Shown piece after piece: positions 1-6,055 of a stretch of DNA of 28,652 nt. The DNA is from a virus (lineage: Duplodnaviria; Heunggongvirae; Uroviricota; Caudoviricetes): IMG/VR virus record IMGVR_UViG_2778261122_000004, positions 1 to 28,652 of that record; one strand, given 5' to 3'. The notes under the pieces were generated by a model, which worked only from the letters and a program-made list of their open reading frames with translations, did no database searches and was not told where the DNA came from. Made by a program: the position numbers and the translations under genes. The stretch's first letter is position 1, and each line of letters begins with the position of its first letter.

Positions 1-207
1 GTGGCTGAGTTAATTTTCTCTGCATTGAGGATTCTCGGTGCTATGTGGATGGTGGCGACATTCATTGTGGTTGCCAGCAGTTTTGTCCGGTTGGTAGGCG
101 AAGGTAAAGACCTGGTGGGTGTGCTTTTCGGTAGCATTCTCCTGTGGGTGATTATCGGTGTTGCGCCTGTCGCTGTAGCAAAAATGGCGTGGCGTTTTGT
201 GAGTTGA
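1..207 (+). CDS. hypothetical small membrane protein, probably 5'-truncated by the window edge
   Basis: ORF is open to position 1 (first codon GTG); product is strongly hydrophobic with two predicted TM segments; sits upstream of ninB where lambdoid phages carry small accessory genes. Confidence 0.35.
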   Translation: MAELIFSALRILGAMWMVATFIVVASSFVRLVGEGKDLVGVLFGSILLWVIIGVAPVAVAKMAWRFVS

Positions 208-224
208 ACTGAGGGTAAGTATCG

Positions 225-602
225 ATGGACGAATCAAGAAAGCAGTTTGAAGAAAGTTGGTTGCGACGTGGAGGCGAATCATCAGACCTTATCCGTTACC
301 CTGAAAATCACCATGAAATTGGCAGCGGTAATATTGGTGGTCAATACGTGATGGACGATGTTCAAGGCCACTGGCAAACGTGGCAGGCATCGCGAGCAGC
401 TATTGAACTGGATATCGACTGGCCCGAATCGAATGACGACTTTTGGAAAGATGGTGAAGAAGGTGCTTATGCGATGGGGCATGAGGATGGGAGGGACAAA
501 ACGGTAATTGCAGTGATGAAAGCTATCAGAGCCGCTGGAATTAAAGAGAAGAATTTCGATGAAGCAAATATACATACTTCGCAACGAAGCAATCAGAAAT
601 AA
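225..602 (+). CDS. hypothetical phage protein (acidic, 125 aa)
   Basis: ATG at 225 preceded by GAGGG; 3' end overlaps ninB start by 44 nt; no family recognised from sequence. Confidence 0.5.
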   Translation: MDESRKQFEESWLRRGGESSDLIRYPENHHEIGSGNIGGQYVMDDVQGHWQTWQASRAAIELDIDWPESNDDFWKDGEEGAYAMGHEDGRDKTVIAVMKAIRAAGIKEKNFDEANIHTSQRSNQK

Positions 603-1005
603 CGCCATAGACGCCATTCTCTCACTACCCATCGACGACAAGTCACCCCACGAAGTCCACGTTAGAGAACCCAAACGCAGCAAAGCGCAGAATGACCGTA
701 TGTGGCCGATGCTGAACGATGTTTCGCGTCAGGTGCTATGGCATGGTCAACGGCTGGCACCGGAAGACTGGAAAGACCTGTTCACTGCCCTGTGGCTTAA
801 GACCAAAAAACTGGAGCAACGAAGTGTTCCTGGTATCGACGGTGGCGTTGTCATGCTTGGCGTGCGTACCAGCAAAATGCGAAAGGCCAGCATGACTGAG
901 CTTATCGAAATCATGTTCTGGTTCGGCTCAGAGCGCAACGTGCGGTGGAGTGATGACTCCCGGCGAGAGTATGAATGGTCACAACGAAAAGGGAAGGCTG
1001 CATGA
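559..1005 (+). CDS. ninB: NinB/Orf-family recombination protein
   Basis: 148 aa, colinear with lambda NinB as recalled from memory (N-terminal MK..., central ...DVSRQV.WHG..L..E.WK..FTA..., C-terminal ...ERGV.WSD...EW); stop overlaps next start (ATGA). Confidence 0.9.
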   Translation: MKQIYILRNEAIRNNAIDAILSLPIDDKSPHEVHVREPKRSKAQNDRMWPMLNDVSRQVLWHGQRLAPEDWKDLFTALWLKTKKLEQRSVPGIDGGVVMLGVRTSKMRKASMTELIEIMFWFGSERNVRWSDDSRREYEWSQRKGKAA

Positions 1006-1529
1006 CTATCAAATCAAATACGCCAGCACACGACAAGGACTGCTGGCAAACGCCGCTCTGGCTTTTTGATGCACTGGATATTGAGTTTGGATTCTGGCTG
1101 GATTCGGCAGCGAGCGACAAAAACGCTCTGTGTGCTCACTGGCTAACTGAGGCCGACGACGCGCTCAATTCTGAGTGGGTAAGCCACGGTGCAATCTGGA
1201 ATAACCCACCGTACAGCAATATCAGGCCGTGGGTGGAAAAAGCCGCTGAGCAGTGCATACAACAGCGACAGACGGTAGTTATGCTTGTGCCAGAGGATAT
1301 GTCAGTCGGATGGTTCAGCAAGGCTCTGGAGAGTGTCGACGAAGTTCGCATTATCACTGATGGACGGATTAATTTTATCGAACCATCGACGGGGCTGGAG
1401 AAGAAGGGAAACAGCAAAGGCTCCATGCTGCTGATTTGGCGACCGTTCATCAGTCCTCGACGGATGTTTACTACTGTATCCAAAGCGGCATTGATGGCGA
1501 TCGGGCAGGGCGTCAGGAGGTACGAATGA
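1002..1529 (+). CDS. phage DNA N6-adenine methyltransferase (Dam-like, orphan)
   Basis: NPPY catalytic motif (WNNPPYSN) seen in translation; start ATG 1002 overlaps ninB stop; in lambda this position holds ninC/ninD. Confidence 0.85.
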
Positions 1530-1717
1530 GACGACAGCGACGAAGTATCACCGACATCATCTGCGAAAACTGCAAATACCTTCCAACGAAACGCACCAGA
1601 AATAAACCCAAGCCAATCCCAAAAGAATCTGACGTAAAAACCTTCAACTACACGGCTCACCTGTGGGATATCCGGTGGCTAAGACATCGTGCGAGGAATA
1701 CAAGGGGATTGACGTGA
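1526..1717 (+). CDS. ninE: NinE protein
   Basis: Internal ATG at 1526 yields [23 protein letters not shown]..., near-identical to lambda NinE as recalled; ATGA overlap with methylase stop. The upstream in-frame extension from 1436 is rejected. Confidence 0.9.
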
Positions 1718-1799
1718 TGATTTATTCGGGGCTATATTTCCGACGCGCCAGCAAAATCTGGCGTCGGGATTGGCGTCCCGGATAGAGACCGCGACAGAC

Positions 1800-1823
1800 A
1801 CACGCCGCGAGCGTGTTTTTTTA
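1800..1823 (+). terminator. intrinsic terminator in nin region (tR3/tR4 analogue)
   Basis: 6-bp stem acacgc/gcgtgt (1800-1805 / 1811-1816), 5-nt loop, then T6 run 1817-1822. Confidence 0.6.
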
Positions 1824-1983
1824 TTGTCGAATGCACGCGCACATCTGAATTATGGTGGGCTGTGTGGGGGCGGAGAGATCCGCGCCGGTCGGTTTCCCGG
1901 TTACGCCAACCCTGCACAGTTCACCACCAGACGATTGGCGTCGTCGGTGGTGAGTTATTTAGAAACCACTCGAGGGCGTCATT

Positions 1984-2664
1984 ATGACAACTCAAATCTC
2001 TGTTGAAACTCTCTCCCCGATCACCCATAACCAGATTCCTGTTATCACCACCGAACTTTTGGCGCAGCTTTATGACACAGAAATTCTGAATATCCAGGTT
2101 AACTTCACCAGAAATAAAGAGCGTTTTGTCGAAGGAAAGCACTTTTTTAAAGCAGTGGGTGAAGAATTAAAAAATTTGCGACTTACTTTAAGTAAGTCAC
2201 AAAATCCCATCTCTCCCAAAACCCGCTCCCTCATCCTCTGGACAGAACGCGGCGCAGCCCGTCACGCCAAAATGCTCGAAACCGATCAGGCGTGGGATGT
2301 GTTCGAAAAACTGGAAGACTGCTATTTCAGCCAGTGCGAGAAAAATACTGGCAAACAAGAGAAGAGCACCAACGAGCTTTCCGCAAAAGAAGCAAACAGC
2401 CTTGTATGGTTGTGGGATTATGCTAACCGCTCACAGGCATTATTCCGCGAACTGTATCCGGCATTGAAACTGATTCAATCGAACTATTCCGGGAGATGCT
2501 ACGACTATGGTCATGAGTTCTCGTATGTTATCGGAATGGCGAGAGACGTTTTAATTAATCACACACGAGATGTTGATATTAATGAGCCAGACGGACCAAC
2601 GAACCTTTCCGCATGGGTAAGGCTTAAGAGCAAAGAATTACCTCCTTCACTGCATCGTTACTGA
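1984..2664 (+). CDS. putative antirepressor-like/DNA-binding protein (Roi/ORF6N-like)
   Basis: ATG 1984 with GAGGG 8 nt upstream; N-terminal region resembles ORF6N-type antirepressor domains (family call from memory, not searched); located between two intrinsic terminators. Confidence 0.5.
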
Positions 2665-2683
2665 CAATTGACAACTTAACAAA

Positions 2684-2707
2684 CCCAGCTTCGGCTGGGT
2701 TTTTTAT
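2684..2707 (+). terminator. intrinsic terminator
   Basis: cccagc / ttcg / gctggg hairpin (2684-2699) followed by TTTTTTATT. Confidence 0.7.
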
Positions 2708-2738
2708 TGCTGAATTTTCAATATGAGAGGACATGACA

Positions 2739-3461
2739 ATGAATGAGCTGATAAATAGCAGCATCATCAAAATGACCAGCATTGAAATCGCTGAGTTGGT
2801 GGGAAGTCGTCATGACAAGGTGAAACAATCCATTGAACGACTGGCGGCTCGAGGTGTGATCCGAAATCCCCCAATGGTGGTTTTCGAAAAAATCAATAAC
2901 TTAGGATTACTTCGTGGCGTAGAGGCTTACGTTTTTGAGGGCGAACAAGGTAAGCGCGACAGCATCATTGTTGTCGCTCAGTTGTCGCCAGAGTTCACCG
3001 CTCGCCTTGTTGACCGCTGGCGAGAACTTGAAGGGGCAACTGCGAAAATCCCACAAACCTTTTCTGAGGCATTGCGCCTTGCGGCTGACCTTGAAGACCA
3101 GAAGGCTGAACTGGAGAAACAGCTTGCTCTCGCAGCACCTAAAGTTGAGTTTGCCGATCGCGTTGGCGAGGCCAGCGGAATTTTGATTGGAAACTTTGCA
3201 AAGGTTGTTGGTATTGGTCCAAACAAACTGTTTGCGTGGATGCGCGATCACAAAATCCTTATTGCTTCAGGTTCCCGGCGCAATGTGCCAATGCAGGAAT
3301 ATATGGATCGCGGCTATTTCACAGTGAAAGAAACAGCGGTCAACACAAATCACGGAATACAGATATCGTTCACCACAAAAATCACCGGGCGTGGTCAACA
3401 GTGGCTGACCAGAAAGCTGCTCGATAACGGAATGCTGAAAGTAACAGGGGAGGCTGCTTAA
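2739..3461 (+). CDS. phage regulatory protein Rha / antirepressor (Ant-like)
   Basis: N-terminus (..MTSIEIAELVGSRHDKVKQSIERL..) matches the Rha-family N-terminal motif as recalled; start placed at ATG 2739 (SD gagagga 7 nt upstream) rather than ATG 2733. Confidence 0.65.
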   Translation: MNELINSSIIKMTSIEIAELVGSRHDKVKQSIERLAARGVIRNPPMVVFEKINNLGLLRGVEAYVFEGEQGKRDSIIVVAQLSPEFTARLVDRWRELEGATAKIPQTFSEALRLAADLEDQKAELEKQLALAAPKVEFADRVGEASGILIGNFAKVVGIGPNKLFAWMRDHKILIASGSRRNVPMQEYMDRGYFTVKETAVNTNHGIQISFTTKITGRGQQWLTRKLLDNGMLKVTGEAA

Positions 3462-3751
3462 TGGCTAACCTACGCAAAGAAGCACGCGGCAGAGAATGCC
3501 AGGTACGTATTTACGGTGTATGCAATGGCAATCCTGAAACTACAGTTCTGGCACATTACCGGATGGCTGGAATTTGCGGAACTGGAATGAAGCCTGACGA
3601 CCTGATCGGCGCATGGGCTTGTAGCGCGTGTCACGATGAAATCGACCGACGCACCCATAATCTCGACAACAAAGACGCCAGACTTTACCACCTCGAAGGC
3701 GTGATCAGGACGCAGGCGATACTGCTGAAGGAGGGGAAGATTAAGTCATGA
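3461..3751 (+). CDS. ybcO: YbcO-like protein (DUF1364 family, Cys-rich)
   Basis: 96 aa with several Cys/His; directly upstream of rusA as in the DLP12 prophage arrangement (ninE-ybcO-rusA); translationally coupled. Confidence 0.65.
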   Translation: MANLRKEARGRECQVRIYGVCNGNPETTVLAHYRMAGICGTGMKPDDLIGAWACSACHDEIDRRTHNLDNKDARLYHLEGVIRTQAILLKEGKIKS

Positions 3752-4143
3752 AAACCTACCGAATAAAATTGCCGTGGCCTCCTTCAAACAACCGATATTG
3801 GCGACACTCAAGAGGGATCCACTACATCAGCGACTGGGGGAAGAGATACCGAAAAGAAGTAATCGAATTAATCCAGCAACAACAGCTAGACATCAAAATC
3901 ACACCTCGCATCAGAATAACCATCCACGCAGCACCTCCCGATAACCGCAAACGAGATTTGGACAATCTGCCCAAAGCCGTTTTTGACGCACTCACCAGTG
4001 CGGGCTTCTGGCTGGATGACGGTCAGATAGACGATATGCGCATCAAGCGCTATCAGGCGATTAAAGGTGGAATGCTTGTGTTGGTTGTGACTGAAACATG
4101 CGGGAGTTTGCCAATTATTACAGAGCTACTGGAGGCCGCATGA
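3748..4143 (+). CDS. rusA: RusA Holliday junction resolvase
   Basis: N-terminal ..LPWPPSNNRY.. and catalytic acidic cluster RKRDLDNLPKAVFDALTSAGFWLDDGQIDD seen in translation; ATGA overlaps on both sides. Confidence 0.9.
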   Translation: MKTYRIKLPWPPSNNRYWRHSRGIHYISDWGKRYRKEVIELIQQQQLDIKITPRIRITIHAAPPDNRKRDLDNLPKAVFDALTSAGFWLDDGQIDDMRIKRYQAIKGGMLVLVVTETCGSLPIITELLEAA

Positions 4144-4346
4144 CGTTCTCAGTAAAAACCATTCCAGACATGCTCGTTGAAGCATACGGAAACCAGACAG
4201 AAGTAGCACGCAGACTGAAATGTAGTCGCGGTACGGTCAGAAAATACGTTGATGATAAAGACGGGAAAATGCACGCCATCGTCAACGACGTTCTCATGGT
4301 TCATCGCGGATGGAGTGAAAGAGATGCGCTATTACGAAAGAATTGA
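4140..4346 (+). CDS. ninH: NinH protein
   Basis: Internal ATG 4140 gives [37 protein letters not shown]..., matching lambda NinH as recalled; the upstream in-frame extension from 4098 is rejected. Confidence 0.85.
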
Positions 4347-4995
4347 TGGCAGCAAATACCGAAATATTTGGGTAGTTGGCGACCTGCACGGTTGCTACAC
4401 GAACCTGATGAACAAACTGGATACGATTGGATTCGACACCAAAAAAGACCTGCTTATCTCGGTTGGCGATTTGGTTGATCGCGGTACAGAGAACATCGAA
4501 TGTCTGGAATTAATCACATTCCCCTGGTTCAGAGCTGTACGTGGAAACCATGAGCAAATGATGATTGATGGCTTATCAGAGCGTGGAAACGTTAATCACT
4601 GGCTGCTTAATGGCGGTGGCTGGTTCTTTAATCTCGATTACGACAAAGAAATTCTGGCTAAAGCTCTTGCCCATAAAGCAGAAGAACTTCCGTTAATCAT
4701 CGAACTGGTGAGTAAAGGTAAAAAATATGTCATCTGCCACGCCGATTATCCTTGTGACGAATACAAATTTGGAAAGCCAGTTGATCATCAGCAGGTAATC
4801 TGGAACCGCGAACGAATCAGCAACTCACAAGACGGGATCGTGAAAGAAATTAAAGGCGCGGACACGTTTATCTTTGGTCATACGCCAGCAGTGAAACCAC
4901 TCAAATTTGCCAACCAGATGTATATCGATACTGGGGCAGTGTTCTGCGGAAATCTCACATTGATTCAGGTACAGGGAGAAGGCGCGTGGGCATAA
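4324..4995 (+). CDS. ninI: Ser/Thr protein phosphatase NinI (lambda PPase-like)
   Basis: Metallophosphatase motifs GDLHG, GDLVDRG and GNHE present; N-terminus [24 protein letters not shown] matches lambda phosphatase as recalled; start at internal ATG 4324. Confidence 0.9.
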
Positions 4996-5474
4996 GAGAA
5001 CTAAACCTCACCAAAGAACAGCATGAGTGGCTGAATGGCTGGCTTGAACTGTGGGGCGCATGGGTTTATTCAGGTCGTCTGGAAAAGCGCATGAGCAGCG
5101 TAATAGCGAAGTTCATGGAGAGCGTAGAGCCGGGAAGAGTTATGACAAGGCCAATGTGTAATGATGATGATGGAATGTTGATTTCTCAGGTCGTCGATTC
5201 CGTCATGTACATTGACAAGAAAGCCTTTGGAATCCTCCTCAGCTACTACGCTCATGGCTCTTCCAAGCACGCCATTGCATCTTACTATCATCGCGTCGCA
5301 AGACCTCGCAAGATGTTATGCCGTGGCGGCGGGCGCATTCAAAAACCATCGCTCGCAACCTGTCGACGGGAAGTTGACGAAATCCTTAATGCCTCGTTGT
5401 TTATGATTTACCCGGTTCTGGATAGTGCGTTTAAAAATCGGAAACGTGTAGAGAAAATTAAACATGTAGCATAG
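4986..5474 (+). CDS. Q: late-gene antiterminator Q (non-lambda type, possibly phage-21-like)
   Basis: Position between the nin region and the late promoter/lysis cassette; 162 aa if started at GTG 4986 (overlaps ninI stop); next in-frame ATG is 5091. Family assigned by synteny and recalled size, not by alignment. Confidence 0.6.
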
Positions 5475-5480
5475 AACGTG

Positions 5481-5511
5481 TTGACATCATTGAGCAAATG
5501 AGCAACACTAT
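5481..5511 (+). promoter_or_regulatory. candidate late promoter (pR'-like) just after Q
   Basis: Perfect -35 TTGACA at 5481-5486, 7 nt after the Q stop; the -10 is weak (aacact/cactat at 17-19 nt spacing). Confidence 0.3.
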
Positions 5512-5520
5512 TGGCATAAG

Positions 5521-5561
5521 CTGCCGTTAGTGACTCTTAAGTTGCAACGGTGGCTTTTTTT
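5521..5561 (+). terminator. candidate intrinsic terminator or pause hairpin (tR'-like)
   Basis: ctgccgtt (5521-5528) pairs with aacggtgg (5546-5553) including two G-U pairs, large loop, then T7 run 5555-5561. Confidence 0.35.
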
Positions 5562-5565
5562 ATTT

Positions 5566-5640
5566 GGGTCAGTCGCATAAAGGTCATTACGGAAGGCTGT
5601 TAACCTTCTTATCGTGGTTCGAGTCCACGCTGTCCCGCCA
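5566..5640 (+). tRNA. tRNA-like gene, anticodon GUU (Asn-like), degenerate D-arm
   Basis: Hand fold: acceptor gggtcag/ctgtccc (one T-T mismatch), anticodon stem gaagg/ccttc with loop ctGTTaa, T-arm cgtgg-ttcgagt-ccacg, discriminator G, encoded CCA; D-stem pairs only 2 of 4. Confidence 0.4.
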
Positions 5641-5645
5641 AATAT

Positions 5646-5721
5646 GCTGGTTTAGCTCCAATGGTAGAGCAGTCGCCTTGTAAGCGAATGGGTAGCGGTT
5701 CAAGTCCGTTAACCAGCACCA
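5646..5721 (+). tRNA. tRNA-Thr (anticodon UGU)
   Basis: Hand fold: acceptor gctggtt/aaccagc (7 bp), U8 A9, D-arm gctc-caatggta-gagc, anticodon arm gtcgc-ctTGTaa-gcgaa (one mismatch at 27-43), T-arm agcgg-ttcaagt-ccgtt, discriminator A, CCA; G1-C72 and C2-G71 fit Thr identity. Confidence 0.7.
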
Positions 5722-5839
5722 TAACTGAGCCGTAGCCACTGGCTATCCTGAACTCATCAGTGATAGTTATGCCGCGGCCTTCTTTTTTCCCCTTCCCAAT
5801 ATAAGAACTACGCAATCCGTTACTTGCGGAGGCGTTGCT

Positions 5840-6055
5840 ATGAAATCAATGGACAAAATCTCTACTGGCATTGCCTACGGAACATCCGCTGGTAGTGCGG
5901 GATACTGGTTTTTACAGTGGTTGGATCAGGTCAGTCCGTCACAGTGGGCTGCAATTGGTGTGCTGGGAAGTCTAGTTCTGGGCTTTTTGACTTATCTGAC
6001 AAATCTGTACTTCAAAATCAGAGAAGACAGAAGAAAGGCTGCGAGAGGTGAATAA
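5840..6055 (+). CDS. S: phage-21-type class II holin (pinholin S21) with dual-start motif
   Basis: 71 aa; [30 protein letters not shown]... matches S21 as recalled; Met1-Lys2-Ser3-Met4 dual start; two TM segments; SD gcggagg upstream. Confidence 0.9.

Follow-up and report, generated by a model that had tools for sequence, protein, structure and literature searches.

The stretch of DNA considered here, referred to below as the window, comprises the 28,652 nucleotides (nt) of IMG/VR virus record IMGVR_UViG_2778261122_000004, which belongs to the Caudoviricetes. Its positions 1-6000, read on the + strand, make up a lambdoid prophage's nin region, in which the gene ninE is followed by ant (1984-2664) and roi (2733-3461). 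Ahead of ant lies a leader with a promoter, an IsrK-like small RNA (sRNA), a terminator and a C4-type antisense RNA, and a second terminator separates ant from roi. We consider it probable, on the evidence of the sequence, that positions 1709-2707 form a self-contained cassette of promoter, IsrK, leaky terminator, C4 RNA, ant and terminator, which is homologous to the isrK-STnc1160/orf45-anrP locus of Gifsy-1 and built like the immI region (c4-icd-ant) of phages P1 and P7. The locus is an antirepressor cassette controlled by antisense RNA of the IsrK/C4 type, followed by roi, and as such it is an expected member of a known family of switches rather than a discovery. Sequence, homology and covariation together show both the anatomy of the cassette and its upkeep by selection.

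The comparative material consisted of 80 IMG/VR loci encoding relatives of ant and of an added set of 117 loci (L085-L201), drawn from at least 120 matching stretches with an exact IsrK 25-mer present. Both sets together gave 75 distinct leaders, 69 of which were parsed. The L numbers denote collected loci, L001 being Gifsy-1 and L002 VT2-Sakai, and the names of the sites a1, b1, a', b', a2 and b2 follow the annotation of P1. For the b sites and for the first terminator, searches were made sequence by sequence, and column-wise pair counts were dropped because insertions and deletions shift the alleles relative to one another.

Three Rfam families score above their gathering thresholds within 267 nt between ninE and ant, in the correct order and on the correct strand. 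The same trio (c4-a1b1, isrK and C4) occurs in VT2-Sakai, Gifsy-1 and Min27, whose leaders are 96%, 80% and ~75% identical, respectively, to that of the window. When 11 loci were scanned, isrK and C4 were present in all eight that have a leader of the cassette type.

The cassette begins with a sigma-70 promoter of the PisrK type (TTGACG-18 nt-TATATT, 1709-1738, + strand), which has 10 of 12 matches to the consensus and is the best match that a promoter scan returned in positions 1-6000. It overlaps the stop codon of ninE, its predicted transcription start lies near 1745, and it aligns with the isrK promoter of Gifsy-1. The elements TTGACN and TATATT or TATAGT are kept in 74 of the 75 distinct leaders, including leaders that have a different upstream gene.

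The predicted transcript opens with the IsrK-like sRNA (1745-1822, + strand), the equivalent of the 'a1b1' element of P1. The Rfam family isrK (RF01394) matches 1745-1821 with 78.2 bits (gathering 50; E-value 2.2e-15; model positions 1-77 of 77), and c4-a1b1 (RF03163) matches 1732-1784 with 50.2 bits (gathering 46.7). The two matches overlap and represent the same element; isrK is placed in no clan and c4-a1b1 in clan CL00128, and the two families appear redundant or related. The RNA contains hairpin 1 (1745-1764) and hairpin 2 (1765-1780), the latter with site a1 (UUGGCGU, 1770-1776, + strand) in its loop, and then a linker that carries site b1 (GAGACCG, 1785-1791, + strand). These hairpins are 90-100% paired across 37 distinct rows.

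The loop of hairpin 1, GCAAAAUC (1752-1759), is essentially invariant in all relatives, with one leader lacking one A, and its P1 counterpart is nearly the same (GCAAAUUC). A complementary partner for this loop was sought and none was found. The loop of a C4 hairpin was ruled out as its partner, since the C4 loop varies and the IsrK loop does not; the C4 hairpin-2 loop has b1 in the linker as its partner, which matches the annotation of P1.

The linker is followed by terminator 1, which has a stem at 1800-1805/1811-1816, the loop CGCGA and a T run to 1822. Its energy is weak (-12.4 kcal/mol; z-score -1.9; 10 of 200 shuffles fold equally well), and hairpin-plus-T sites are common in the stretch (10 in 6 kb, where shuffles yield 5.5 ± 2.6). 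What supports terminator 1 is therefore homology and variation. In the Rfam isrK match it forms the 3' hairpin, its stem has been rebuilt in at least four different sequences (ACACGC/GCGUGU, GACGCG/CGCGUC, ACCGCG/CGGCGGU and GACGUG/CAGCGUC), and a hairpin precedes a T run in 75/75 distinct leaders (mean free energy, dG, -8.8). Located inside the unit, 55 nt downstream of the conserved promoter, terminator 1 is predicted to be a leaky internal attenuator and the 3' end of the IsrK-like sRNA.

Next comes the C4-type antisense RNA (1848-1931, + strand), a homologue of P1 c4, P4 CI and Salmonella STnc1160. The Rfam family C4 (RF01695, clan CL00128) matches over its whole model (positions 1-87 of 87) with 66.7 bits (gathering 45; E-value 4e-11). 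The RNA folds with -44.5 kcal/mol (z-score -4.2) into a closing stem of 15 base pairs (bp), two hairpins and a single-stranded joint. Its stems are 100% paired among the relatives, nine pairs have changed on both sides, and none of 500 shuffles reaches the observed score. Hairpin 2 carries site b' (CGGUUUC, 1890-1896) in its loop, and the single-stranded joint contains site a' (ACGCCAA, 1903-1909). The leader of ant that follows carries the corresponding target sites a2 (UUGGCGU, 1935-1941) and b2 (GAAACC, 1962-1967), followed by the Shine-Dalgarno sequence GAGGG (1972-1976) at a distance of 7 nt from the ant ATG at 1984; all of these lie on the + strand. Site b2 ends 4 nt 5' of the Shine-Dalgarno sequence, 17 nt ahead of the ATG, and in other alleles, for example L014 and L047, it overlaps the Shine-Dalgarno sequence itself. 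In the allele of the window, a local hairpin (1937-1982) pairs 8 of the 10 bases around the Shine-Dalgarno sequence.

The pairing of C4 with its partners is kept across the family. In the window, a' pairs contiguously over 7 nt with a1 and over 7 nt with a2, and b' over 7 nt with b1 (one G-U pair) and over 6 nt with b2. Among the 69 parsed leaders, at least 7 nt are paired between a' and a1 in every one and between a' and a2 in 68, and at least 6 nt between b' and b1 in 68 and between b' and b2 in 65. Column counts put the pairing of both a1:a' and a':a2 at 96.9%, and in each of them 4 of the 7 pairs have changed on both sides; in control structures shifted by one to three columns, pairing is 14-53%. 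The mean match of b' is 7.0 and 7.25 nt with the two sites of its own leader and drops to 4.4 and 4.2 nt with those of other alleles. At least eight a alleles (GGCGUC, AGCACC, AGGAACC, GGCAUC, GGAACC, UGCACC, GAGACC and GGUCUC) and at least 14 b alleles were found, which reassort into 22 combinations (the Min27 type is AGCACC/GUUUCGA), and within each allele all three partners co-vary, namely the IsrK site, the C4 segment and the site in the ant leader.

Several individual loci show variants of this arrangement. Five of them are damaged or recombinant modules: L112, which has a' of one allele and a2 of another, L199, which has a weakened b2, and L086, L091 and L165. In the last three, an open reading frame (ORF) beginning MLKTPRKR follows directly after C4, in place of a2 and b2, and looks by eye as if derived from an insertion sequence (IS). 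In L146 and L170, an IsrK/C4 leader with its own a and b alleles stands before a different gene, the N-terminus of whose product is Bro-N-like by eye (MRFNMTNQLAFHNTKFNV...); this suggests that the RNA module has been combined with different antirepressor types.

The gene predicted to be under RNA control, ant (+ strand), encodes 226 amino acids (aa) of the ORF6N + P22_AR_C antirepressor type. Its product matches Pfam ORF6N with 72.8 bits (cut-off 27.8; 2.8e-20) and P22_AR_C with 99.4 bits (cut-off 22.4; 1.3e-28), as well as PHROG 377, 'anti-repressor Ant' (1.7e-82). It is 74% identical to Min27 Ant and 51% identical to Gifsy-1 AnrP, with a nearly identical N-terminal domain. Beyond ant lies terminator 2 (2681-2707, + strand), a strong intrinsic terminator with a 9-bp stem (2681-2702), a UUCG loop and T6 (-15.1 kcal/mol; z-score -4.6; 0 of 200 shuffles as stable). 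Terminator 2 and the 68-nt spacer to the next gene recur downstream of most ant relatives, and terminator 2 most likely ends the IsrK-C4-ant operon.

The next gene, roi (+ strand; 242 aa), thus stands outside the RNA-controlled operon. Its real start may be the second ATG, at 2739. The product has a KilAC (ANT) C-terminus (Pfam ANT 113.9 bits, cut-off 25.3, 6e-33) and a Rha-like N-terminus, for which the Rha profile gives 26.9 bits, below its cut-off of 29.9, and it is 98% identical to VT2-Sakai Roi. A promoter scan found no promoter for roi in the 68-nt spacer, between terminator 2 and the start. Since terminator 2 stands between ant and roi and no promoter was found in the spacer, the two genes are probably not co-regulated, and roi is probably expressed only by read-through, for example in antiterminated early transcription.

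An earlier interpretation, made from the letters and a list of ORFs alone (the sequence-only reading), had taken the two genes as an antirepressor-like pair. Its assignment of both proteins to antirepressor families agrees with the profile searches (ORF6N/P22_AR_C for the first, KilAC for the second); of the models it had named for a check, ORF6N and KilAC score above their cut-offs and Rha falls short. The labels, Roi-like for the first gene and Ant-like for the second, were the wrong way round: in the records of Shiga toxin (Stx) phages and in the literature on them, the first gene is Ant and the second is Roi. The grouping of the two genes into one unit does not hold either, given the position of terminator 2 and the lack of a detectable promoter in the spacer.

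Further features were seen in and around ant and roi. Inside ant, at 2175-2203 on the - strand, there is a 13-bp inverted repeat followed by U6 (-19.5 kcal/mol; z-score -5.3), which looks like an intrinsic terminator for antisense transcription or could be a protein-binding palindrome. The sequence of its stem differs in L014 and L025 with the pairing kept, and it is duplicated in VT2-Sakai and L047; it sits in the variable linker of Ant, within a repeated peptide unit (NLRxxLxxSQ). Some relatives (L036, L069) have two tandem ORF6N antirepressor genes. The first of these, which is short, stands behind an IsrK/C4 leader, and the second behind a different leader that matches the Rfam family sRNA-Xcc1 (RF02221) with 75.7 bits (L036:824-907, L069:415-498). 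In VT2-Sakai, ant (H0107, L002:2784-3299) is truncated to 171 aa with a divergent tail, and the roi gene of Escherichia coli O111 FWSEC0005 (L202:1563-2286) is annotated as frameshifted; members of the ant/roi pair are often decayed in well-known strains.

Based on these features, the following mechanism is proposed. The promoter at 1709-1738 would be active in the lysogen, and RNA would start at ~1745. Most transcripts would stop at the weak terminator (1800-1822), giving the IsrK-like RNA that carries a1 and b1. Transcripts that read through would contain the ~80-nt C4 RNA, which would be processed out; indirect evidence for this is that STnc1160 depends on the isrK promoter in Gifsy-1 (PMC4825925). 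Through a' and b', C4 would pair with a2 and b2, in cis or in trans, and block ribosome entry, so that the lysogen would make no Ant. IsrK, which offers the same two sites, would compete for C4 or remodel the long transcript, and the ratio of terminated to read-through RNA would gate the translation of Ant. By analogy with P1, P4 and Gifsy-1, Ant would then inactivate the prophage repressor and promote induction. Terminator 2 would end the unit, and roi beyond it would probably be reached by read-through. With a and b alleles matched in this way, the action of the RNA would be limited to leaders of the same type, much as the heteroimmunity of P1 and P7 works.

A wider proposal is put forward tentatively, as one that we hold to have somewhat less than an even chance of being right. 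In prophages of the lambdoid, Stx and Gifsy types, the a and b sites may constitute a combinatorial RNA 'immunity code' that governs antirepressors, each C4 silencing no ant leaders but those of the matching type. A three-partner mechanism goes with it, in which a' and b' would choose between a1/b1 on IsrK and a2/b2 at the ribosome site of ant. If the code is true, it would decide which co-resident or incoming prophages can cross-induce each other in polylysogens such as enterohemorrhagic E. coli. If the three-partner mechanism is true, it revises the published two-partner model of IsrK and explains the de-repression of certain Gifsy-1 double mutants described below. Where modules are co-resident, their alleles differ in 7 of 8 genomes or contigs, with ~80% expected by chance according to a rough estimate from allele frequencies. 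On a single contig, L094 carries two IsrK/C4 modules that share their a allele but differ in their b alleles.

The isrK-orf45/STnc1160-anrP-isrJ locus of Gifsy-1 in Salmonella Typhimurium was studied by Hershko-Shalev et al. in 2016 (PMC4825925). In that prophage, transcription of anrP is driven by the isrK promoter, and some transcripts pass the IsrK terminator to give a ~910-nt messenger RNA (mRNA) that is translationally silent (PMC4825925). Short IsrK supplied in trans raises the translation of AnrP more than 100-fold, and AnrP in turn brings about synthesis of the Q-like AntQ and induction of the prophage (PMC4825925). IsrK, STnc1160 and IsrJ are highly transcribed in Gifsy-1 lysogens under all conditions tested (PMC7067206). 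When the Gifsy-1 transcript is numbered from the start of the Rfam IsrK match, the published mutant positions are reproduced exactly: the activating mutations G28A and G31A fall inside a1 (nt 26-32), C159U and C162U fall inside a' (nt 158-164), and A107 belongs to the AUG in the 5' lead of C4. No mutation was placed in the identical a2 site at nt 192-198. Pairing of a1 with a' is restored in the published 'compensatory' double mutants, yet they give 224 and 327 units against 4 for the wild type, that is, 56- to 82-fold more (PMC4825925). That they stay de-repressed is expected under the three-partner model, because a':a2 is still broken.

The alternative that survives best, although we consider it unlikely, is that the published Gifsy-1 mechanism applies to the window unchanged. 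According to this mechanism, a1 and a' form a lock within the transcript (structure A), and IsrK in trans frees the ribosome site of a small upstream ORF that is translationally coupled to ant; a2, b2 and C4 acting in trans have no part in it. Direct genetics and structure probing in Gifsy-1 speak for it (PMC4825925), the leader there is 80% identical, and an intramolecular lock accords with what G28A and G31A do in cis. The upstream ORF, however, lacks conservation. Read from the C4 AUG (1852), that of the window has 33 codons and a stop at 1951-1953, 30 nt short of the ant ATG; relatives have between 14 and 46 codons, the 45-codon form that overlaps the next start as AUGA is confined to Gifsy-1, and in L047 and L081 the frame crosses the ant start without a stop. 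This lack of conservation fits a non-coding RNA and argues against AUGA coupling in the window. The unchanged mechanism also leaves unexplained why a2 and b2 are kept and co-vary with a' and b' in 65-68 of 69 leaders, as well as the double mutants just described.

Two candidate leader peptides were rejected for the window. One was a coupled peptide of the orf45 type, since the ORF stops 30 nt before the ant ATG. The other was a GTG-started frame of 41 codons (1862-1987) that ends in ATGA; its start falls within the C4 stem and has no ribosome site, and its ATGA overlap is missing from several alleles.

A number of points weigh against the cassette and mechanism that we favor. The RNA ends, the processing of C4 and the leakiness of terminator 1 in the window are carried over by analogy, and the repressor that Ant would target lies outside the window. 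The duplex of C4 with its target has -26.0 kcal/mol against -20.7 ± 3.9 for shuffled targets, which is not significant, and duplex energy was consequently dropped as evidence for the pairing. The translational coupling through orf45 described for Gifsy-1 cannot, judging from the reading frames, work in the same way in the window. In Gifsy-1 itself, constitutive STnc1160 together with IsrK made growth arrest worse, not better (PMC4825925), which is a misfit with a simple scheme in which C4 represses and IsrK is a decoy. Moreover, G28A placed in cis in a1 raised rather than lowered basal expression, for which the authors' explanation is the intramolecular a1:a' lock (PMC4825925).

The sequence-only reading offered a different model, which we regard as very improbable. 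It held that two nin terminators, like lambda tR3/tR4, frame the genes, and that a promoter at 1824-1853, right after terminator 1, expresses the pair independently. Much of what it described is present. Both hairpin-plus-T sites exist where it had placed them, and the location in a nin region is borne out by NinB, Dam and NinE upstream and by YbcO, RusA and a putative Q downstream. Early transcripts from upstream must pass both terminators, so a lambda-like dependence of downstream nin and Q expression on N antitermination, which it also suggested, is plausible; the window itself does not contain the nut sites, N or PR. The two terminators do lie on either side of the first gene, but terminator 1 is inside the unit and not in front of it. 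We read it as an internal attenuator and not as the upstream insulator that had been supposed. What had been overlooked are the RNAs, among them the C4-type RNA (1848-1931) with its target sites, which is the core of the regulation.

The promoter proposed in that model was ruled out. Its hexamers, TTGTCG (1824-1829) and AATTAT (1848-1853), are present with their 18-nt spacer, but they have 8 of 12 consensus matches and fall below the threshold of the scan. Of 67 distinct relatives, 38 retain the -35 element TTGTCG and the other 29 have unrelated hexamers in its place; the '-10' element AATTAT coincides with the conserved 5' lead of the C4 RNA. Gifsy-1 has the same hexamers and spacer and makes no STnc1160 once the isrK promoter is deleted (PMC4825925). 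The unit does have a promoter of its own, as the sequence-only reading had expected, but it is the far better one at 1709-1738, upstream of terminator 1 and kept in 74 of 75 leaders. Because terminator 2 intervenes between ant and roi, the pair is not one unit.

It is hardly credible that the elements are inactive remnants of an immI-like module and both genes ordinary delayed-early nin genes: damaged relatives do exist (the truncated ant of VT2-Sakai, the frameshifted roi of O111 and the IS-like insertions after C4 in L086, L091 and L165), but the window has all its parts intact and both ORFs at full length, and the three-way covariation over many alleles points to continuing selection on pairing.

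The surroundings of the cassette are as follows, all on the + strand. Upstream, Pfam matches identify NinB (559-1005), a Dam-type methylase (975-1529) and NinE (1526-1717); downstream of roi they identify YbcO (3461-3751) and RusA (3748-4143). The ORFs further downstream, judged by eye without a library search, we take to be NinH, a phosphatase and a Q-type antiterminator (4986-5474), and on the same basis the ORF at 5840-6055 is presumably a holin. Two transfer RNA genes (5566-5637 and 5646-5718) lie between the putative Q gene and the putative holin ORF, and no toxin gene is evident in the ORF list between the putative Q and transfer RNA genes and that ORF. The late genes are 97.5% identical to those of E. 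coli phages such as vB_EcoM-689R2, and from its sequence the prophage seems to be a mosaic in which an early region of lambdoid type is joined to different late genes. Among complete E. coli genomes, no full-length match to 1500-3500 above ~92% identity was found.

Antirepressors can induce prophages without SOS-dependent cleavage of the repressor, and they can act across co-resident prophages. In Stx phages, the action of an antirepressor bears on toxin release. The ant gene of a lambdoid prophage sits, according to the reading favored here, behind a two-RNA switch known from P1 and Gifsy-1, and to read such loci as two antirepressor genes between terminators is to overlook the regulator. The main value of the analysis lies in a corrected annotation and in a clean, testable system of alleles that bears on whether these RNAs set immunity groups among Stx-type prophages.

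The locus can be compared with several known systems. In lambda, the nin terminators tR2-tR4 are intrinsic terminators between the replication genes and Q that early transcription passes. The terminators of the window likewise lie between replication genes and a putative Q; unlike those of lambda, terminator 1 is inside a cassette and forms the 3' end of an sRNA. In its layout of promoter, gene and terminator, and in its occurrence after ninE in some phages and after Q in others, the cassette resembles a phage 'moron'.

In Stx phages (Phi24B/Min27, VT2-Sakai and the 933W group), and for Roi in HK022, the ant-roi pair occupies the same nin position as in the window. One report states that Ant of Phi24B is needed for efficient induction of late transcription (PMC3064807), and another describes the Ant-Roi pair in Stx phages (PMC3430580); in the passages of both that term searches brought up, ant and roi are described without upstream RNAs. 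The phage and RefSeq records inspected also annotate proteins only and not the upstream RNAs. A full-text search found no paper linking IsrK, C4 or STnc1160 to Stx phages, although its coverage was limited and its outcome is no proof of absence.

In phage P4, immunity depends on the arrangement seqA-CI RNA-seqC, in which the CI RNA is processed from the leader and pairs with upstream and downstream copies of its target. The outcome in P4 is premature termination of transcription of the replication genes and not control of an antirepressor. The authors of the Gifsy-1 study regarded IsrK as a structural homologue of the P4 SeqA RNA (PMC4825925).

With Gifsy-1, the window shares the same promoter, a terminator 1 with an identical stem-loop and a T run one T shorter, the a allele GGCGUC, IsrK and C4-type RNAs that both score above the Rfam gathering thresholds, an ORF6N-type antirepressor as the next gene, and an intrinsic terminator that closes the operon at ~0.9 kb. 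The Gifsy-1 operon transcript (~910 nt) ends at the isrJ terminator right after anrP, and the terminator at this place in the window differs. Unlike Gifsy-1, the window has no 45-codon AUGA-coupled ORF and no isrJ: a search of 1500-3700, including terminator 2, gave no isrJ match at E-values up to 1, against 100 bits in Gifsy-1. The b alleles are CGGUUUC/GAAACC in the window and CGGUGAU/AUCACCG in Gifsy-1, and the Ant of the window has a P22_AR_C C-terminal domain that AnrP lacks. In the window and in Stx phages the cassette follows ninE, with roi next in the window, whereas in Gifsy-1 it follows an annotated Q gene; in L088 and L100 it follows ORFs that by eye resemble the Q of Gifsy-1.

In the immI operon of P1 and P7 (P51-a1 b1-c4-a2 b2-icd-ant1/ant2), the C4 RNA is excised from its precursor by RNase P and acts in trans, and the expression of ant is coupled to the translation of icd. 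The annotation of the P1 record gives the order promoters, a1, b1, c4, a2, b2 at the icd ribosome site, icd and ant1/2; b2 overlaps the Shine-Dalgarno sequence of icd. In this record C4 and c4-a1b1 score above gathering, a weak isrK match (35 bits) covers the a1b1 region, and a terminator-like hairpin stands between b1 and c4, inside the weak isrK match. The window thus resembles P1/P7 immI in the order of its parts, in the recognition of two sites by one C4 hairpin loop and one single-stranded joint, in the placement of b2 at the ribosome site and in the terminator-like hairpin between b1 and c4. It differs in that there is no icd-like ORF, ant following directly after the target sites, and in that no C1-type operator is visible at the promoter. 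The regulated antirepressor is of the ORF6N + P22_AR_C type in the window, compared with a KilAC C-terminus in P1 Ant1; the KilAC domain of the window's Roi is found in both Ant1 and KilA of P1. The host element is a lambdoid prophage in the one case and a plasmid prophage in the other. Finally, the allelic a and b sites of the window's family resemble those behind the heteroimmunity of P1 and P7 (PMC12197685).

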